Shown one piece after another: positions 13,117-36,886 of a stretch of 64,000 nt of DNA; within the stretch, counting starts at the first letter, position 1; each line of letters opens with the position of its first letter. The notes beneath the pieces are model-generated. The model was not told the DNA's origin. It searched no databases and worked only from the letters and a program-made list of their open reading frames with translations. Location of the stretch: contig JAVKOQ020000005.1 of assembly GCA_031835245.2 (NCBI GenBank), positions 62,001 to 126,000 on the forward strand. Direction: 5' to 3'. The DNA comes from Balamuthia mandrillaris (taxonomy: Eukaryota). Both the position numbers and the translations under genes were made by a program.

Positions 13117-15463
13117 CAAGGGTGGAAATCGAGCACTGGAGTGCTCGGTCGACAAAAACCCGCAAATAGTCAGTACTCGCGCGAGTTTGTGCCACGTCAG
13201 CGAATACTCAATTTTTCGAGTACTTTAATTAGTTTTGAGTGGCAATTTGAGGGCGAATTATTGGATGTTTCTTAAAGAAGGACCCGACCATAATTTATCG
13301 TTTTAGAGTTTCGGGCAAGAGAGTAAAGCGAAGAAAAAATTTTGAGCAAAGAGAATGGAAGCACCGCAGCAGGAGCAGGAGAAAGAAAAAGAGGCTGAAC
13401 CAAAGAAAAAGCGACGTCTATCGCATGTATTCCAACACTTCGTAGACGCCTCCCCGTCCAAAGAAGGAAAGCTGATGGTTCGATGCAACCACTGCAAAAG
13501 AAAGATGTGTTACAGCGATGGGCCAACAACGAACCTGTTGAACCACCTTCGTTCACAGCATCCCGAAACTACCTCTAAAAAAGTCTCCGAGGAGCTAATG
13601 GATGCGATTTGCGAATTTTGGGTGATGAACTCTCTTCCGTTTCATTTGGTGGAAGCCGAACCGTTTCAGAAGATTCTTTCATTCTGCGACGACAAGTTAA
13701 TGCCCGTCACACGCTATGGATTGAAAAAGAAAATCAAAGAATGGTTTGGAATTTTTTGTTTCCTTCCTTTTTGTCGTTGCTGCTTTCTGCTTTTTTTCTA
13801 GTTCTGTTTCTTTTTTCTCTTTATTGTGAGTTTTTTTTTGCTTTTTTTTAATGCTCATGTATCAGGTATGCATGCACACTTTTGAGCCTTCAAAATGAGC
13901 TGCAGCAAGAAGTCCGGGTATCAGAGGCACTGTCATATGACTTCTGGACTGCACCAAACAAGGACTCATACCTCGCTATAATCCTTCGTTACGTTTCCCT
14001 TTCCACTTTTCAACCAAAGACAGTTGTCTTAAGCGTGGCAGTCTTTGAAGAAGCTGAGCACACTGCAAATAACATACAAAAAGTTCTGATCCAGATTTCC
14101 CGCGACTGGAAGCTTTCTTTTGAGGACACTTTTGTTGTTGCAGATGGAGCAAGCAACGTTTCTGCAGCAGCGCGGCGTCTTTCAATGGAGCATATACACT
14201 GCGCAGCTCACAAACTCCACCTCATCGTCACCCATTCTATTCCTTCCATCCAGCCTCTTTATGACAAGTGCAAAGCCCTTGTCACTTTCTTCAACCAAAG
14301 CTCAAAAGCAAGCTTAGACCTTCGTGACCATCTAAAGAAAGAAAAGAAGAAGTTCCGCACTCTCATTCAAGAAAACACAACGCGATGGAACAGTACTTTT
14401 GAAATGTTTCGTCGTCTTCTCAAAGTCCGTGGTGGCTTTCTTCAAATCTTACAAAAGCATAAACGGGAAGATTTGCTCCTGGAGAGTGCTGAATGGGAGT
14501 TGTTGGAGCAAGCAAAGACGCTGTTAGAACCGTTGGCCACCTTAACTACGGACATTCAATCCCCTAATTCCTCCATTTCTATCATTCTACCTGCGTTACT
14601 TTCCTACTACTACAACTATCTTCCGTCATTTCCCTTCCCTTCTCAATCAATTCTCAACAACCTTGTGTCACGTCTACAAACACATGTTTTTGAGGCGATA
14701 TCCTACTACTTTGACACATCCGCTGCTATGGCAACAGCACTTGACCCACGTTTTCACCAACTCAAATATTGGCCTGCTCCAATGGCAATACGCGTTCAAC
14801 AAAGGATCCTTCAATGCAGCATTACATCCACTTCAGCTTTAATACCGACCTTCCCATCCTCAAAAAAGCACAAGAAGAGTTGGATTGACATGTTGCTTCA
14901 AACAAATACACCATTAACAACAACTCAACCAAGCAACTCACAACTCCAACGTGAATTAGAAGCATTTCTCTCTGGCCAAGTCCTTAGTCCCTTCGAAGAT
15001 CCTTACCGTTGGTGGCTATCTCATTCACAAACCTATCCTCTACTCTCCCAAGTGGCAGCCAAGTTTCTTGCGATTCCTGCGACTTCAGCTCAAGCTGAAA
15101 GAGTCTTCTCTCTCGCGGGTCACATTCTCTCTCCAGACCGTTCAACGCTCTCTCCTAAGCTTGTTGACATGCTTATTTTCTTGAAGTATGCGCACAATAA
15201 ATAACCACTTGCTTCTCTCTCCCGTCTATTTGTTTCGATGTACATCGCTCCCTCTCGCGTTCCCTTTTTGTATTTTAATCAACAATTATCGAGTCTTAAT
15301 CATAGATATCTTAATTTATGGACTCCATTTTAATTCGAGTGGTGCTGACATCATCGCGAGTGCTATTCACTAAAAAAGAGGCACTCGCCAGCAGTCGAGT
15401 ACTCATAACGTCTAATACTCACGAATGAGTAGTCGAGTGGTGAATGCTTGATTTCCACCCTTG
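13117..15463 (+). mobile_element. Complete hAT (Ac/hobo/Tam3) DNA transposon, 2347 bp
   Basis: Left TIR CAAGGGTGGAAATCGAGCA (13117-13135) and right TIR TGCTTGATTTCCACCCTTG (15445-15463) match at 18/19. 8-bp TSD CTGCGCAG at 13109-13116 and 15464-15471. Subterminal CGAGT/ACTCG/AGTACT repeats at both ends; internal transposase. Confidence 0.96.
13355..15204 (+). CDS. hAT transposase (BED Zn finger + DDE + C-terminal dimerization motif), ~575 aa, one intron 13744-13865
   Basis: BED-like HVFQHF...CNHC...LLNHLRSQH; SYDFWT (D1), VADGASN (D2), HCAAH (CxxH), TRWNSTFEM, PATSAQAERVFS (E). Removing the GT-AG intron joins the two ORFs in frame (..KEW|YACTLLSLQN..). Confidence 0.93.
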
Positions 15464-29047: not shown

Positions 29048-31175
29048 CTAAAATAAAAAAAATATAGTTTCTTCGCTATCACTATCGCTATCGCTATCGC
29101 TGTCTTCGCTATCACTGTCACTAGAATAAAATTCCTCTTCGTCTTCGTCTTCGTCTTCATCATCTTCTTCAAACCGTCTGCGGGGTTCCTGCTGGGGTTC
29201 ATCCCAAGGGCATCCGTTGTCACGTGCCCACTTTAAAATGTCCTTATGTCCGTTGCGTGAGGCCCAGTTACACGTGCTCTCGTCCCAAGGGCATCCATTC
29301 GTATGTGCCCACTGCAGGATCCTCAAGTGTCCTCCTTGTGCTGCAGCGCTACATGTTCGTTCATCCCAAGGACAGCCATTGGCCCTCAGCCATTGCAACA
29401 CTTCCAGTTTGTCTCCTTTTGCAGCAGCCGCACAGGCCGTGGCATCCCAAGGACATCCATTGGCTCTGGCCCATGTTAATATCTCGATGCAGGCCTTTCG
29501 TTCGAATTCGTCCTCCTCTTCATCATCCGCCAACGCAGTGGCGGCTCCTGTACAGGTTCGCTCATCCCAAGGACAGCCGTTCTCTCGAAGCCATCGAAGT
29601 ACTTCAAAACGTTTGGACTCTGCTGCAGCACAGGCCCGTTCGTCCCAAGGACATCCTTTCTCTCGAGCCCATTTCAACATCTCAAAGTTCTCTCGAGCTG
29701 CGGCTGCACATACTTCCTCGTTCCAAGGACATCCACGCTCCCAAAGCCACTTCAACAGTTCAGGTCGCGCCTCAGCAGCAGCAGTAAGGCATGTGCTCGC
29801 GTCCCAAGGACAACCCTGTTCGTGAAGCCATTGGAGCAGCTCCTTATTGCCATGGGCCACTGCCTCATTGCAAGTCTCCACAGTCAAAGGACAGCCCTGC
29901 TCATATGCCCATTTCAAGATCTCAAAGTGACCTCCGTCTGCTGCTTTGCTGCAAACCTTGTCGTCCCAAGGGCAACCATTGTCGTGTGCCCATTTCAAAA
30001 TCTCCAAATGTCCATATTTAGCCGCTTTGCGGCAAGTGGCCTCGTCCCAAGGTAAACCAAGCTCTCGAGCCCACTTGAGAAATTCAAAGTGGCCGCCCTT
30101 CGCTGCAGCGCTGCAGCTTGAAGCATCTACCGGGCAGCCGTGCTCGTATGCCCACTGAAAGGTGGCCATTTGCCCTGCCTGTGCTGCATAGCGCAAGGTG
30201 TCCTCATCCCAAGGGCAATCGTGCGCTCGAGCCCACTTTAGAACGTCCAGGTGTCCTGACATAGCGGCCATTACACATGTTGTCTCGTCCCAGGGGCAAT
30301 AGTTTTTATGAAGCCACTTAAGAACCTTCAACTGGCCAGCTCCTGCCGCATGTGCAGCAGTCATCGTGCTCCAAGGGCAGCCCCACAGTCGAATCCATTT
30401 TAGGGCCTCCAAGTGCCCGTTTTTCGCCGCAGCGATGGTGGTATTCGTATGCCACGGACAAGAACAATAGTAGGCTTTCTTGAGCACGTGCAAATGGCCG
30501 TTTGCCGCTGCAGCATCACATGTCTACCAAAGCAGAAAATGCAAGAGAGAGAGAATGTAAGTGACATGAAGAAGAGCAGGCTGAAGAAAAGAAAGAGAAA
30601 GAGAAACGACGAAAGAGAAAGAGAACGAGAAACGACGAAAGAGAAAGAGAAAAGTGAACAAATGAGAGGAGCATACCTTTTCATCCCAAGGACAGCCATT
30701 CTCTCGCGCCCACATCAACACTTCCAAGTTGCCTTGTCTGGCCGCCTCCTCACATGTACGGACGCTCATCGGATGTCCGTTCTGCACAGCCCATTGTAAC
30801 ATCTTCAGGCTGCTGCACACCGCCTCCTCAAGCAGTACGCGCCGAAGTACGGGATTGCTGCAAGCATACCAACGACGGCAGGTCCTGGCGGCCACAGCTA
30901 CCATGTGACGAGGCAGCAGGTTAATTATGTGACACAATAGTTCGTCTGGGATCTGATCTTGCAGCCAGCTACCACCTTCTCCCTATATTGGACAAGAAAG
31001 CGTAAGCTGCGGGGATCTAGGAATGGAACACAACCCCTTCCTGAGATGCAAAAAGACGAACCGTGTGCGGTGCTTCGTGATTTCCAAGCGGGTCTACCTT
31101 TTCATTCTCTGCGTTTTCCGTATGCAGTGTCTCTTGCTCTTGGTCAATCCTTCGGCGTTTTTGTGGTTTGCTCAT
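29048..31175 (-). CDS. F-box + 'GCPWD' ankyrin-like repeat protein with acidic tail, intron-containing
   Basis: MSKPQKRRRID exon; F-box-like IPDELLCHIINLLP..AARTCRRW; more than 15 repeats of C..AA..GHLEILKWAxxNGCPWD. Confidence 0.85.
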
Positions 31176-31486
31176 GCCGTGTGTTCTCTCTTGTTGCTTT
31201 GTTCTCGTTGGAAACTTCGTGTAGTTAAAATCACCCCTCAAACCCTTTCTTTTTATGTCGACGTTAATTATTTCTTTTAGCGACCCCTCACGTTGTCGAC
31301 GAAAACTATTTATGTCGACAGGAATATTTTCCGACCCCTCAAGTTGTCTACAAAAAACATACCGAAAGAAGAAAGGAAAAAGAAGAGAGCAAGAAGAGGA
31401 CGGCGGAAGGCTCACTTCTTTTTTTATTGGTGTTGTTGAACGGTCTATCCACATCTTTTCCCTCTAGCAACCCTTTTTTTTTCACG

Positions 31487-32427
31487 ATGTCGGACAGAGA
31501 AAGTTTTGTGGACCCAGACGAAGTGGACGTGGAAGGTGAGGAGGAGTTCGAAAGCAGAGGGAGCAGAGGGCGGCTGAGATCAGAGATTTCTGTTTCTGGC
31601 AGCGGTAGCGGAGGAGGCGTCAAGGGAAGAGGAGCCTCTGGTGGTCATGGAGGCATGGAGGAACGCTACGCCGGAAAGTCTGGAGTGTTTGAGCGACTGT
31701 CCCGTGATGGCTCTTCTTCCGCTGCCTCTGCTTCTTCTTCTTCCTTTTCCTCCTCCTCCTCTTCTGTCTCTCACCACGAAAAGGGCGCTTCTGTTCCTCA
31801 ACAATGTATTGTACCACTCTTTTTTGCTTCAATCGTGTTCTATTTTTTTTTTGGGCTTATCACTTTTTTTACTCTGGAAACCCAAAAAATGTAGCGGTGG
31901 AAGGTTGGATTGTCATTGCAGCAAATGTACAGGAGGAAGCTCAGGAGGATCAGATACACGACGCGTTTGCCGACTAGTACGTTCCCTTTTTTTTCTTGTT
32001 TTCTCTTTCTTTTCTTCGTCTCTCTGTCCTCTTTCTTTCCAACTCATTTATAGATCCATTTCTTTCTTCTCTTTGTCTCTTTTTCTCTTCTCTCTTCTTT
32101 CTTCGTAAAGTTATGCTTAACACAACAAACCCAATCCAAAAAAACAAAAAACAAAAAACACTTGGCAGTGGAGTGATCAAGAACATTCAACTTCCATTGG
32201 ACAGAAGAACAGGCTTCGTCAAGGGCTACGCCTTGGTGGAGTACGAAACAAAGAGGGAGGCGGAGACGGCCATCGAGAAGATGAACCAAGCAGAGTTTAT
32301 GGGCAAGACATTAACCGTGGACTGGGCCTTCCTGGCCAAGCCTGGCTCCTCCTCTTCGTCTTCATCATCATCTTCTTCTTCTCGAAGCAAAGGACGCGTG
32401 GGAGGAGCAGGCGGAAGGAGAAGATAA
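31487..32427 (+). CDS. RBM8A: RNA-binding protein 8A (Y14), exon junction complex
   Basis: KGRG motif, [58 protein letters not shown]; two introns. Confidence 0.95.
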
Positions 32428-32628
32428 GTCTTTTGGAGGGAAAGAAAGTAATATGTCGACAGTTGTCTACAAAAAGTATAACCTGTTTTTATGACGACAT
32501 TAGATTTAAATATTTGTCGACATTTGTCTGCAAATAATCGCTCCTACAGGAATAATACGAAGGCGACGCAAAGATCATAAGATCTAAGGACAACAAAAAA
32601 GAAATCCCGACGACATTCGTCTTTTGGG

Positions 32629-32654
32629 CCAATGAGCATTTTTCCCGCCAAAAC
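32629..32654 (+). promoter_or_regulatory. CCAAT box plus E2F-type site (TTTCCCGCCAAAA) upstream of the Fanzor gene
   Basis: CCAAT 32629-32633; TTTCCCGCC 32641-32649 fits the E2F consensus TTTSSCGC; about 70-90 bp before the ATG at 32722. Confidence 0.5.
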
Positions 32655-32721
32655 AACCCTTCCTTCTCCCACGTCTTCGAAGGCAAAGTGGTGGGTTGGG
32701 GTGTGGGGTGGGGTGAATGGA

Positions 32722-34843
32722 ATGGATGCTCATGCTGCTGCCGCCAATAAACTTTTGGTACTCGTCATTCGCCTTGACACTTTTCTGCTACTCGTTTTCT
32801 TTTCTTCTCTTCTCTTCTTTTCTTGTCGTTTCTTTCTTTTCAAAAGTAAACACACAGACACACACATCCACGAAGCTCCACGCACCACCGTATTTCTCAT
32901 TGCTACGCTTCTACTACACAAGGAGGAAACCAGCGGCGGAAGGAGGCAGAGGTGGAAACCGAAGCGGTTCAGCAGCAGGCAGGGGCACCGCTCCGATTGA
33001 AAAGGTAGCGTTCTTTTTTCTCTGCTCGCTCACTACATTTTTTGATGATGGAAAAAAAATTTGTTACCAACCACTCACTAATGATTTCTTTTGTTTAAAA
33101 AAGAACAGCATCACGAACCTCTGTGCGCCTCTTCCACAACGCTGCTGGAAGCTGGCCTGAATGGCAAGTTTGCTACCTCTCACGGGTTGGCCGTTCACTT
33201 CGGTCGGGTCCACAAGGAAGGGGGTCGCGCCACTACTTCTTCTACTCCCACTGCTACTCGGAAAAGAAGAGCGGAAAACGCCCCAGCGGCACCTCAGGCA
33301 AGGGCACAGAAGCGTGGAAGGCCGCAGGCTGCACCCGCCCAGCCCTTTTGGAACCAGTTTTCCAGCGAAATCGGGAGAAGATTAATACGCCCAGAAGCCT
33401 TGTGCTTGGAAGAACCCTTTGCCTGTGGTTCAGGATGGTTCACCGCCTGCAAGCACATTCCTAACGGAGAAAAGGTGTTGGAGGAGGAGGAGGAGGAGGA
33501 GAAGAAGGAGAAGGAGAAGGAGAAGGAAGAAGAGGAGAAAAACCAGAAAGGCTTGTTAGGCCTCATCGAGGGACTCGTTCCGTCTCGCCCAGCCGTACAG
33601 CTCACCAAAAAAGGCAAGAATGGAGAGGAGAAACCGGTAGTGGGGCGATTGGAGAAGATCCGCCTTTATCCGCGCTCGGAACAAAAGAAGACGCTGGCCA
33701 AGTGGTTCGGCACAGTACGATGGACCTACAACAAGGCCGTGGAGTTTCATCGTGAACATAAAGGAATGCCTCTTAAGAAGATGAAGGAACAAGTCAGGGA
33801 GAAATTCCTGAATAACGGCAATTTCAACGGAGAGGACAAGAGCCTTGCGTGGGTGTTGGAAACTCCTCGATACATTCGCAGTGACGCCGTCGATGATTTC
33901 TTCAACGGCGTGAAAACCAGCTTGGCGGCGGGCAGGACTGGATTCAAGATGAAGTTCCGTGGTCGGAAGGACAAGAGCCAGTCTCTCAGCATCCAAGCCA
34001 GGGAGTGGAACCACAGCAAGTCCATCCGCCAACTCCTCTTCGGGGAGGCGCGAATCAAAGCGAGGGACAAGAACTACAAAGTTCCGTCGGAGGTGCTCTA
34101 TGCCGTTCGTCTGGTGAAAGACACTCGACTGGGCCATTACTACCTCTGTGTGCCTCAGCCTTTGAAGCTCATGGGCGAGAGCCAAGCCCGTGAGCACCGA
34201 AGGAGAGAGGCAGGCATCATCGCCTTGGATCCAGGAGTGCGCACATTCATGACCACCTACAACGGCTGCGGGGAGGTCACCGAGTGGGGCAAAGCGGACA
34301 TCAACGAGATAGGCAAGCTGTGCCACCGCCTGGACCGCATGCAGAGTAAGGGCACCAAGGGCAACCACAGGCAACGGCGCCGTCTCCGAAGGGCCGCTGC
34401 TCGGCTTCGCCAGAGGATCCGCAACCTGGTGGATGACCTCCACAAGAAGCTCGTGTCTTGGTTGGTCAGGAACTTCTCCCTCATCCTTCTGCCAGAGTTC
34501 AGGAGCCAGCAGATGGTGCGGCGAGGCCACCGACGCATTGGCTCACGAACGGCCAGAGCCATGCTCACCTGGTCCCACTATCGCTTCAGGCAGAGGCTCC
34601 TCAACAAGGCCAAGCAATGTCCGTCCTGTACGGTCTGCCTCTGCGATGAGGAATACACCTCCAAGACCTGCGGCAAGTGCGGCCAAGTCCACCACCAGTT
34701 GGGGGGAAACAAGACCTTTCGGTGCCCAACCCGAGTGTGGCTACCAGGCCGATCGAGATGCCAACGCCGCCCGAAACATCTTGATCCGCTTTTTTACGTT
34801 ACAAGCACTTACCACCTCCTCCTCCTCTGTGAGGGGGCGGTAG
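32722..34843 (+). CDS. Fanzor2 (eukaryotic TnpB-like RNA-guided endonuclease); exons 32722-32757, 32858-33004, 33109-34843; frameshift near 34723-34738
   Basis: PFWN..EI..RL N-terminal motif, KIRLYP..QKKTL..WFG..RWTYN (OrfB HTH), IIALDPGVRTF (RuvC-I D, 34228), ILLP + DEEYTSKTC (rearranged RuvC-II), CGKCG...CP Zn ribbon, and in the shifted frame ECGYQADRDANAARNI (RuvC-III D, 34757). Both 5' introns are GT-AG and phase 0. Confidence 0.92.
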
Positions 34844-34917
34844 GCGGTAAGGTTGCTTTGGTGCCGGCACCGTTGCTTATAGCGAGTCGTATGACAAGCC
34901 GTGATTAGGCACGCCGG
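34808..34917 (+). ncRNA. Candidate Fanzor omega-RNA scaffold (guide predicted to start at 34918)
   Basis: Long hairpin 34808-34851 over the stop codon; GGTG-CCGG-CACC hairpin 34860-34871; three small hairpins 34874-34910; terminal GCCGG 34913-34917 complementary to the CCGG loop (pseudoknot). Folded by eye. Confidence 0.62.
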
Positions 34918-35177
34918 AGGTGGGTTATTTCTTGTTTCTCTGTTTTTTTTTCCCCCGTCAACTAATTTTGCTTTATTTTCGTTGTCCATTGATCGGCTTG
35001 ATCTTGGCACCATCTTAGGAGTTAAAAGGTTTAAATTCCTATTCTTATTGGAGGTGAACCACTGCTGGCTGTGTTTTGTGTGTACATAGCTGAGTGCAAG
35101 CGATCATATAACAAAAGTAATAACAATGAATTGTAATCACAAGAAAGAAGAAAGAAAGAACAAGCGCTGAAAGGTTT

Positions 35178-36023
35178 TCAATCAGACATAACCTGTCGAG
35201 TGATCCACTGAGGCCATTCGGTGATAGGAATCTGTTCTTCCAACACCCGGGAGTATAGACGATGAACGTCCACGTTCTTGAACCGACCTTCTTGTACCGC
35301 ATTCATCTTTGCAAATATAGCCACACTCACAAAATACCTGTTGGCCATTCAGTTATTCGTTTTTTTTTAAGTTGTTAGTGAATCGGATCCGTGACGACTT
35401 ACACTTGAGAGAAAGTGAAGTAAAAAAAGAGTAAGTAAACGTACTTTTCAGACAGGTCTGTAAGAGCGCTTTCGGTGGAGCGTAGCTTCTGTCTCGTCTC
35501 TCTCAACACTTTGTCTTTCAGGTTAAGCTCATTCTCCAAACAATGAACGCGTTCCTCCAAGTGTTTCTGTGCTGGTGTATTTGTTGCTTCCACCATAACT
35601 CCACTGTTGGACTTCACTTTACGAAACGGCAGTCTCGTTGCGTTTCCACTGTGCAGAAACTTTTGCAGCTGTCTCTGAGAGAGTTGAACTTGTTCCTCCT
35701 CCTCTTCTTCTTCCATCGACAGTGTTAAGTCACTGTTGCTGCTTGTGGCCTCTCTATCGAACAAGTCGGAAGGAGGAGGTTTTACAGAGTAGGGAGAAGT
35801 GGAGGAGGGAGAAACCTCTCCTTCCTCCTCGTTTTTGGAAGGCATTACGAGAGAGAGCATAGGAGAGGTGACGTTCCGTGGAGAGAAGCTGCCGCTGAGG
35901 TCCTCTGTTGAGCTTTGGTGGTCGATATTGAGAGACGAGCTGCTCAACTTCAAAAAAACAGAGGAAGGCACGAAAGAGTTAACTCAGACATACAAGAAAC
36001 AATAACAAAAGACGAGAAAAAAG

Positions 36024-36066
<43 letters not shown>

Positions 36067-36558
36067 CAACGACGAGGAATAAAGGGAGTAGAAACGAGAG
36101 GACAACGACAGCAACAAACGATACTCAACTGCCTCACTGCTATCTACGGCAATATTGTACAACAACGAAATGCTGTTCCTCAACTGGGCAAGCCACCGCT
36201 GTCTCTCCTCTCTCGAGGCAGCGATCAGGAAGTAGTCCCGGAAGGAGGTGCGAATGCTGAACGCGCAGCCGGCATACTTGGAACCAGGGCGGACGGCGTC
36301 GGGCACCTCCACCACCTTGGTGGTCCGCTCGAGGGGGATGTAGTCGATGGCCTTGTCGCTCTTGCAGTCGCTCTCCTTGGCAAAGTATTTGAGGCGCTTG
36401 CCGTCCAGCTGGAAGTAACGCCGCTTCCAGTTCTTGCGCCGGCCGCCTTGCTTCTCCAGCCAGCCCTCCAAGGGAGGCAGCGCCGGAGCTCCCATCATCA
36501 TCATGCTCCCTCTCGCACTGCCGCTCCCCGGCGCCGGTGCTGGTGGTGATGGTTCCAT
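35178..36558 (-). CDS. PH-domain protein with Ser-rich linker and coiled coil, multi-exon
   Basis: LEGWLEKQGGRRKNWKRRYFQL..LKYF..YFLIAASREERQRWL; last exon YFVSVAIFAKMN...IPITEWPQWITRQVMSD*. Confidence 0.85.
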
Positions 36559-36886
36559 TTTGCTGTATGTATGTTTGTCTGTATGTTTCTCTTATTGATT
36601 TGTCCGTTTTGGTTACGCCAATTTTTTTTACCTTTTTCTGGAGCAGCCGAAACCGCGTGGGTATTTTTCGTGACGACACGAAAGAAAAATGTTGTGCGAG
36701 GTGTTTGGTTTTTTGTCGACGAGGCATAATATTAATTAATTTAAAAACGAATGTAGGCTGAAATGAATGAACAAGCCGGATTGGCTGACTTGAATCTGGG
36801 GTGATCTACTGGAAATCGTGCAGGGCTACCGAAAAAGCCTAACTAGACTTTTTCCTCTACAAAAAGAACTAAAAAAAGAAAACAGA

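Follow-up and report, generated by a model that had tools for sequence, protein, structure and literature searches.

The closest described systems to the locus reported here are Fanzor genes of eukaryotes and giant viruses. Fanzor2* denotes Fanzor2 genes that lie in non-IS607 transposons bounded by terminal inverted repeats (TIRs), described in one alga, Chloropicon primus, and several molluscs; they have been proposed as an intermediate stage linking IS607 elements with Fanzor1s, and their right repeat is reported to pair into the omega-RNA scaffold (PMC10711439). The same paper gives the Fanzor fingerprint as a DPG motif combined with a shifted glutamate. Eukaryotic IS607 elements encode a serine recombinase (TnpA) that overlaps or precedes the Fanzor start. 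The ACa elements of Acanthamoeba are described as having neither TIRs nor target-site duplications (TSDs) (PMC3627910), and a paper that reports introns and nuclear localization signals (NLSs) in Fanzors also says of a mimivirus IS607 element that it has inverted terminal repeats (PMC10530073). The Fanzor1 element Spu-1 resembles the element described below in having a single ORF, about 2 kb, between inverted repeats, and its ghost elements are short derivatives that share ends, as are found in Balamuthia (PMC10432273).

We analyzed a window of 64,000 nucleotides, by which we mean the whole stretch of DNA under study, from Balamuthia mandrillaris. This amoeba is a human pathogen, and our analysis drew no link from the element to virulence. 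The Balamuthia genome preprint states that transposons still need dedicated annotation and gives a mean intron length of 113 bases (10.1101/2025.02.25.640156). We found no mention of Balamuthia Fanzors in the open literature and the readable supplements searched; for Fanzors together with C2H2 fingers, the search listed one red-algal genome paper.

We conclude that the locus at 32560-35017 is probably a broken copy of a multi-copy, non-autonomous Fanzor2*, that is, an IS607-derived nuclease in a TIR DNA transposon that is moved in trans. The Balamuthia element and the described Fanzor2* share the fingerprint, the lack of TnpA, degenerate TIRs and several copies per genome; the Balamuthia element differs in its amoebozoan host, the lack of a TSD at this copy, a likely C2H2 start and a spliced antisense RNA. 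New here are the amoebozoan host of a Fanzor2 between TIRs, the likely C2H2 finger at its start and the likely antisense RNA. Fanzor introns and NLSs, TIR-borne Fanzor2s, the Acanthamoeba IS607 Fanzor2s, the ApmFz2 structure and ghost elements were already published.

Identity of the nuclease

The main frame of the nuclease (33085-34908, plus strand, as are all element features below unless stated) contains an HTH_OrfB_IS605 domain at 33655..33747 (Pfam PF12323, E 5.3e-10), the RuvC-I motif ALDPG at 34222..34236, a proline at the canonical RuvC-II position in ILLPEF (34483..34500), and the shifted catalytic glutamate with the first CxxC in EEYTSKTCGKC (34648..34680). This glutamate stands six residues before the zinc finger (EEYTSKTC), and it is invariant, together with the D, P and G of RuvC-I, across 119 aligned proteins. 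A second frame holds the last cysteine pair together with RuvC-III; in it, DRDANAARNI begins at 34751 and the stop codon ends at 34843 (34751..34843). All of the motifs named in the original prediction were found at their places, including KIRLYP (33655), WFG..RWTYN (33703), the proline paired with the ExYTS glutamate, and two NLS-like basic motifs, RKRR (33259) and KRGRP (33310), which are predicted signals in a disordered linker (33259..33324).

TnpB families of Pfam and NCBIfam match the nuclease frame. The best solved relative by sequence is the mimivirus Fanzor2 ApmFz2 (PDB 9b0l, E 4.6e-20; PMC11832414), encoded by the element ISvMimi, and a structure search with a model of the paralog P0126 (mean pLDDT 81.7, with values below 50 at residues 1-62) likewise placed 9b0l at rank 1 (E 1.3e-16) and SpuFz1 at ranks 36-37; the Spu-1 protein, a Fanzor1, is a far weaker structural match to the Balamuthia model (E 6e-5). 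Both proteins have a disordered basic N terminus followed by a structured N-terminal domain, an HTH, a rearranged RuvC and a C4 finger, whereas the Balamuthia protein adds an acidic tract and a C2H2 pattern; the two are 17% identical in the structural alignment. The proteins of ACa-1/2 (PMC3627910) and of loci L001, L002 and L008 belong to the same clade, at 37-44% identity, and the Balamuthia protein and the eukaryotic IS607 Fanzor2s have conserved PFW and WF motifs in their N-terminal domain. The proposed assignment to Fanzor2, or IS607-derived TnpB, agrees with the family matches, 9b0l, the DPG and shifted glutamate, and the tree described below, and the best HMM and structure matches fall within the TnpB/Fanzor family. 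Judged by its sequence, the nuclease is a Fanzor2 of IS607 descent and a predicted RNA-guided DNA cutter.

Element ends and genomic surroundings

We compared the locus with RNA data comprising samples of 3-5% from each of three raw runs and a contig set, X9, all aligned to 31300-36800. These RNAs come from other strains, pool all copies of the element and are apparently unstranded; X9 is only guessed to be RNA, but the absence of two host introns from it is what RNA would show. The element spans 32560-35017 (2.46 kb) and is larger than the 32722..34917 first proposed, an account that lacked the TIRs, the 22-base loss and the zinc finger, all of which we found here. Its left end (32560..32601) and right end (34974..35017) form imperfect inverted repeats of about 42 bases, with 29 of 43 columns matching. 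Reads from other loci diverge before 32560 in all four runs (19, 13 and 4 reads, and 1 contig), and the right end is defined by two contigs of one run, X9, that leave the alignment at 35008 and 35018. In a scan of 3654 window tiles, four scored as high: the left end twice, the right end and one by chance. When the overhanging read letters from the right end of another copy are used instead, the match between the ends over the first 17 bases rises to 15. We detected no TSD of at least 3 bases at this copy when the ends were shifted by up to 3, only 2-base matches, and no 8-base TSD of the hAT type. Elsewhere within the window we found neither a second copy of the element nor another copy of either end, and the left end has no match among the related loci (best 35/60).

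Elsewhere in the genome there may be a solo left end of 40 bases (matching 32560-32599) with 9-10-base direct repeats at its flanks; two runs contain reads that point to it, and we deduce the repeat from loose lengths of 89+40+20 that match one read. Several other sequences share only these 40 bases.

The insertion lies between convergent host genes, as was claimed. On the left is an RRM gene (31487-32427, plus strand; Pfam RRM_1), which is RBM8A-like, and on the right an exon of a PH-domain gene (35950..36558, minus strand; Pfam PH) with an intron downstream (35338-35444, minus strand); the RNA data reveal spliced host introns on both flanks. Divergent from the RRM gene is a long ankyrin-repeat gene (29048-30982, minus strand) that contains numerous PWD repeats and has an acidic tail. 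The motifs TGTCGAC(A) and TTGTCTACA, which may belong to host promoters or repeats, form mostly intergenic clusters at 31256-31345, 36714, 12532, 18963, 19124, 27733 and 57879 as well as just left of the Fanzor2 element (32454-32515).

A separate, young-looking hAT element stands at window positions 13117-15463 (plus strand). It encodes a BED finger and a hAT dimerisation domain, has 27-base inverted arms at 96% (duplication included) and a perfect 8-base duplication, CTGCGCAG, and the closest protein matches found share only about 32% identity. This hAT is the only transposase among 79 other window ORFs scanned, a subset of those listed. Both it and the Fanzor2 element start with (C/T)AAGG, but the remaining repeat sequence differs, and we treat the shared start as only a hint.

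Absence of a serine recombinase

A TnpA profile built from 13 resolvase-type TnpAs of related loci has no match in the six frames of the element or of the 64-kb window, in agreement with the earlier report that no serine recombinase is visible; the element contains no transposase gene, which supports its description as non-autonomous. Among its relatives, TnpA is present at 125 of the 140 assessable loci (159 were fetched, 19 of them with too little upstream DNA), and ApmFz2, too, sits in an IS607 element with TnpA (PMC11832414), unlike the Balamuthia nuclease. The leader (32602..33160) is common to other copies, whose paralog predictions translate the same DNA, and it holds no recombinase remnant. 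Two candidate remnants that recall TnpA, 'KKICY' from the leader and 'LLEPV' from the overlapping frame, were rejected for hhalign E values of 0.18 and 0.12, respectively, and wrong spacing. A second plus-strand frame is open for 121 codons (33099-33464) over the Fanzor N terminus, where TnpA overlaps Fanzor2 in relatives, and its product has no significant resemblance to TnpA.

In the tree, which is the product of a quick, unfinished search with 92 rows given and some loci omitted from the rows drawn, the Balamuthia family falls beside the TnpA-bearing L002 (SH-aLRT 94) within a mostly star-like radiation. A TnpA-less Fanzor2 was also seen at L014:1557-3220, in an intron-rich, eukaryote-like metagenome contig.

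The main alternative is that the element is a TnpA-less IS607 derivative moved in trans by a serine recombinase encoded elsewhere in the genome, with the end repeats serving as binding sites for that enzyme. The IS607-type character of the close relatives (125/140) speaks for it, as does the missing duplication at this copy, given that IS607-type Fanzor2 elements are described without TSDs (PMC3627910), and so do the inverted terminal repeats attributed to the mimivirus IS607 element (PMC10530073). The ends, however, form a long inverted pair, a 9-10-base direct repeat seems to lie on either side of one short copy of the left end, and the element retains no TnpA remnant. We consider this explanation unlikely and favor capture by a TIR transposon.

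Probable protein start and C2H2 finger, and frame breaks

The likely true start codon is at 33161, where the paralogs P0002 and P0126 begin at a matching ATG. It is followed directly by the first of two breaks (33161..33165), at which 22 bases are missing behind 33165. Contig set X9 carries these bases at a depth of 375.6/375.6; the raw reads have the 22-base form at 0/1, 0/2 and 0/2 where depth collapses. Short direct repeats flank the loss, which is probably real. The loss removes both finger cysteines and shifts the frame, and the downstream frame thereby connects to upstream sequence in this copy.

What survives at 33169..33213 is half of a C2H2 finger (F..L..H..H). The full pattern, C-x2-C-x3-F-x5-L-x2-H-x4-H, is present in P0002 and P0126, which are the only 2 of 139 proteins to carry it and are both from Balamuthia. 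The pattern occurs in none of the 151 locus ORFs with DPG (from 159 loci) and at no N terminus among 135 further proteins, and a search with residues 1-70 recovered only the family itself (2/46 candidates). Against Pfam zf-C2H2, the finger gives an E value of 0.015, under the cut-off, and its PDB matches are C2H2 fingers. Its Atlas score of 0.87-0.88 is a lead only, and a single-sequence AlphaFold model made with no alignment returned an uninformative plain helix. We regard a C2H2 finger at the protein start, unseen in the non-Balamuthia relatives checked, as likely from these patterns.

The second break, at 34724..34726, is the absence of 2 bases from a C run, which shifts the frame before the last cysteine pair and RuvC-III. 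The 2 bases are present in 9/10, 8/17 (plus 2/14 placed at 34724, two bases earlier) and 2/4 of the raw reads and in X9 at a depth of 313.2/313.2. The same break is found in P0129, and a nearby G-run shift in P0001 and P0122. Indels in G or C runs are typical of long-read assembly errors, and the second break may be one. RuvC-III is out of frame in this assembly and in frame in most RNA reads, as well as in P0125 and P0126; the Fanzor2 family is transcribed with an intact C-terminal frame. Because the 22-base loss shifts the frame and the 2-base loss cuts off RuvC-III, this copy, as assembled, cannot make the full protein.

Copies of the element

The closest proteins to the nuclease are annotated as Balamuthia mandrillaris and comprise 16 annotated proteins or pieces on 15 contigs. 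The core identity of the first 12 annotated copies to the 32560-35017 copy is 82-100%, with values of 95-99% among several copies. As annotated, each of the 12 paralogs tested is broken or partial. Loose read ends at window positions 34416-34451 agree with translated P0215, which represents a second subfamily, diverged or chimeric, for which transcripts likewise exist. Noncanonical RNA joints at 33640-34467 and 33962-34226 suggest internally deleted copies of the element.

The damage to all 12 tested copies and the deletion forms in the RNA could also mean that the family is dead or domesticated, its copies immobile and its RNA read-through noise. Against this stand the copies that are still 95-99% identical, the several breaks that fall in error-prone G or C runs of long-read assemblies, and the majority of RNA reads that keep the frame at 34725. 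We judge a dead or domesticated family improbable.

Proposed introns and a likely antisense RNA

The original prediction placed two introns in a coding 5' extension of the nuclease translated from 32722. Both exist as sequence: intron 1 (32758-32857, plus strand) and intron 2 (33005-33108, plus strand) have GT-AG ends, are in phase 0 and are low in GC like host introns, and intron 2 has a branch-like CTAAT. The corresponding joints, 32757->32858 and 33004->33109, are listed in none of the four RNA runs, where only about 1-6 reads per run cover the leader and a joint was listed only if supported by 3 reads from 2 starts or by a contig. No joint was found that ties the 5' exons to the nuclease ORF at this depth.

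The RNA instead shows a different, antisense joint. The joint 33032->33119, with CT..AC ends, occurs in all four RNA runs (5, 2 and 2 reads and the X9 contig, depth 375.6) and corresponds to a minus-strand GT-AG intron of 86 bases (33033-33118) over the leader; its ends are like those of the first host RRM intron. A genomic deletion is the alternative. Such ends are expected at a random joint about 2% of the time, and 7 of the 12 annotated copies encode peptide from within the skipped bases, so splicing is likelier than deletion. A spliced antisense RNA likely crosses the leader; no long ORF runs across its joint.

The spliced model of the 5' extension equals the public gene prediction P0124 letter for letter, and the same prediction stands for 5 of the 12 annotated copies. 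This agreement is a second prediction and no test, since gene predictions are no experimental support. The extension from 32722 owes its open frame entirely to the 22-base loss behind 33165. In the four other predicted copies, the frame appears to be reached solely through removal of 13 finger bases, which the RNA contig keeps. Thirteen bases are implausible as an intron, being below the lower intron size limit. The extension has no Pfam match, and the intact paralogs start downstream with the C2H2 finger. The intron-coded extension is likely a gene-prediction artifact; the plus-strand introns are unproven and, if real at a low level, would lie in a leader rather than in the nuclease frame of intact copies. 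Despite the host-like phase-0 GT-AG introns, the repeated prediction and the low RNA depth over the leader that might hide the joints, translation from 32722 is very improbable when an overlapping minus-strand joint is seen in 4/4 runs and the proposed joints in 0/4.

Predicted omega-RNA region

The predicted omega-RNA scaffold region (34800..35017), placed by its position, folds better than its shuffles (z -2.36, 3/300 as good); the z score is -1.89 for 34790-35020 and -0.46 for 34856-35017 alone. Within the predicted scaffold, the right repeat takes part in the pairing, which matches reports on Fanzor2*. No Rfam family matches the region, the best match having an E value of 0.6, at chance level. 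A U-rich, intron-like stretch (34920-34984, plus strand) lies in the loop of the predicted omega-RNA stem. It has a GT donor and a CTAAT 23 bases before its end and is skipped in 2 reads of one run; its acceptor is TG rather than AG, and this TG is mirrored in the left repeat. The TG acceptor disfavors a plus-strand intron in the omega-RNA region, which we hold to be unlikely, and a genomic deletion at 34920-34984 is as likely as an intron.

Discussion

Under the reading that we favor, a non-autonomous Fanzor2* in a TIR transposon, the nuclease would descend from IS607-type elements and would have lost the overlapping serine recombinase. The Fanzor2 would then have been captured by a TIR transposon, and its movement would depend on a cut-and-paste DNA transposase acting in trans. 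A C2H2 finger would have been gained at the protein start, with translation from 33161 yielding a protein that bears the finger and a nuclear signal. By analogy with studied Fanzors, the protein of intact copies would bind an omega RNA transcribed from the right end and the DNA next to it and would cut the empty donor site, where repair would restore the element; this cutting model is reviewed in PMC13565253. As a guess, the antisense RNA might dampen the element.

A more far-reaching and less likely history can be offered only tentatively. In it, a DDE transposon, perhaps a hAT-like one, captured an IS607 Fanzor2 independently in the Amoebozoa, and a eukaryotic C2H2 DNA-binding finger took the place of the region of recombinase overlap, with self-control by spliced antisense RNA and possibly an intron in the omega-RNA region. 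Such an element would be a living intermediate between Fanzor2 and Fanzor1 with an added targeting domain.

For annotation, our results caution that the public gene models of this Balamuthia family likely invent intron-split extensions around frameshifts, and this may inflate counts of 'intron-containing Fanzors'. For the family, an amoebozoan TIR-borne Fanzor2 would add one more case of capture or loss. If a compact Fanzor2 naturally bears a C2H2 finger, it could contact DNA next to the TAM as well, which would be of interest for editing tools.
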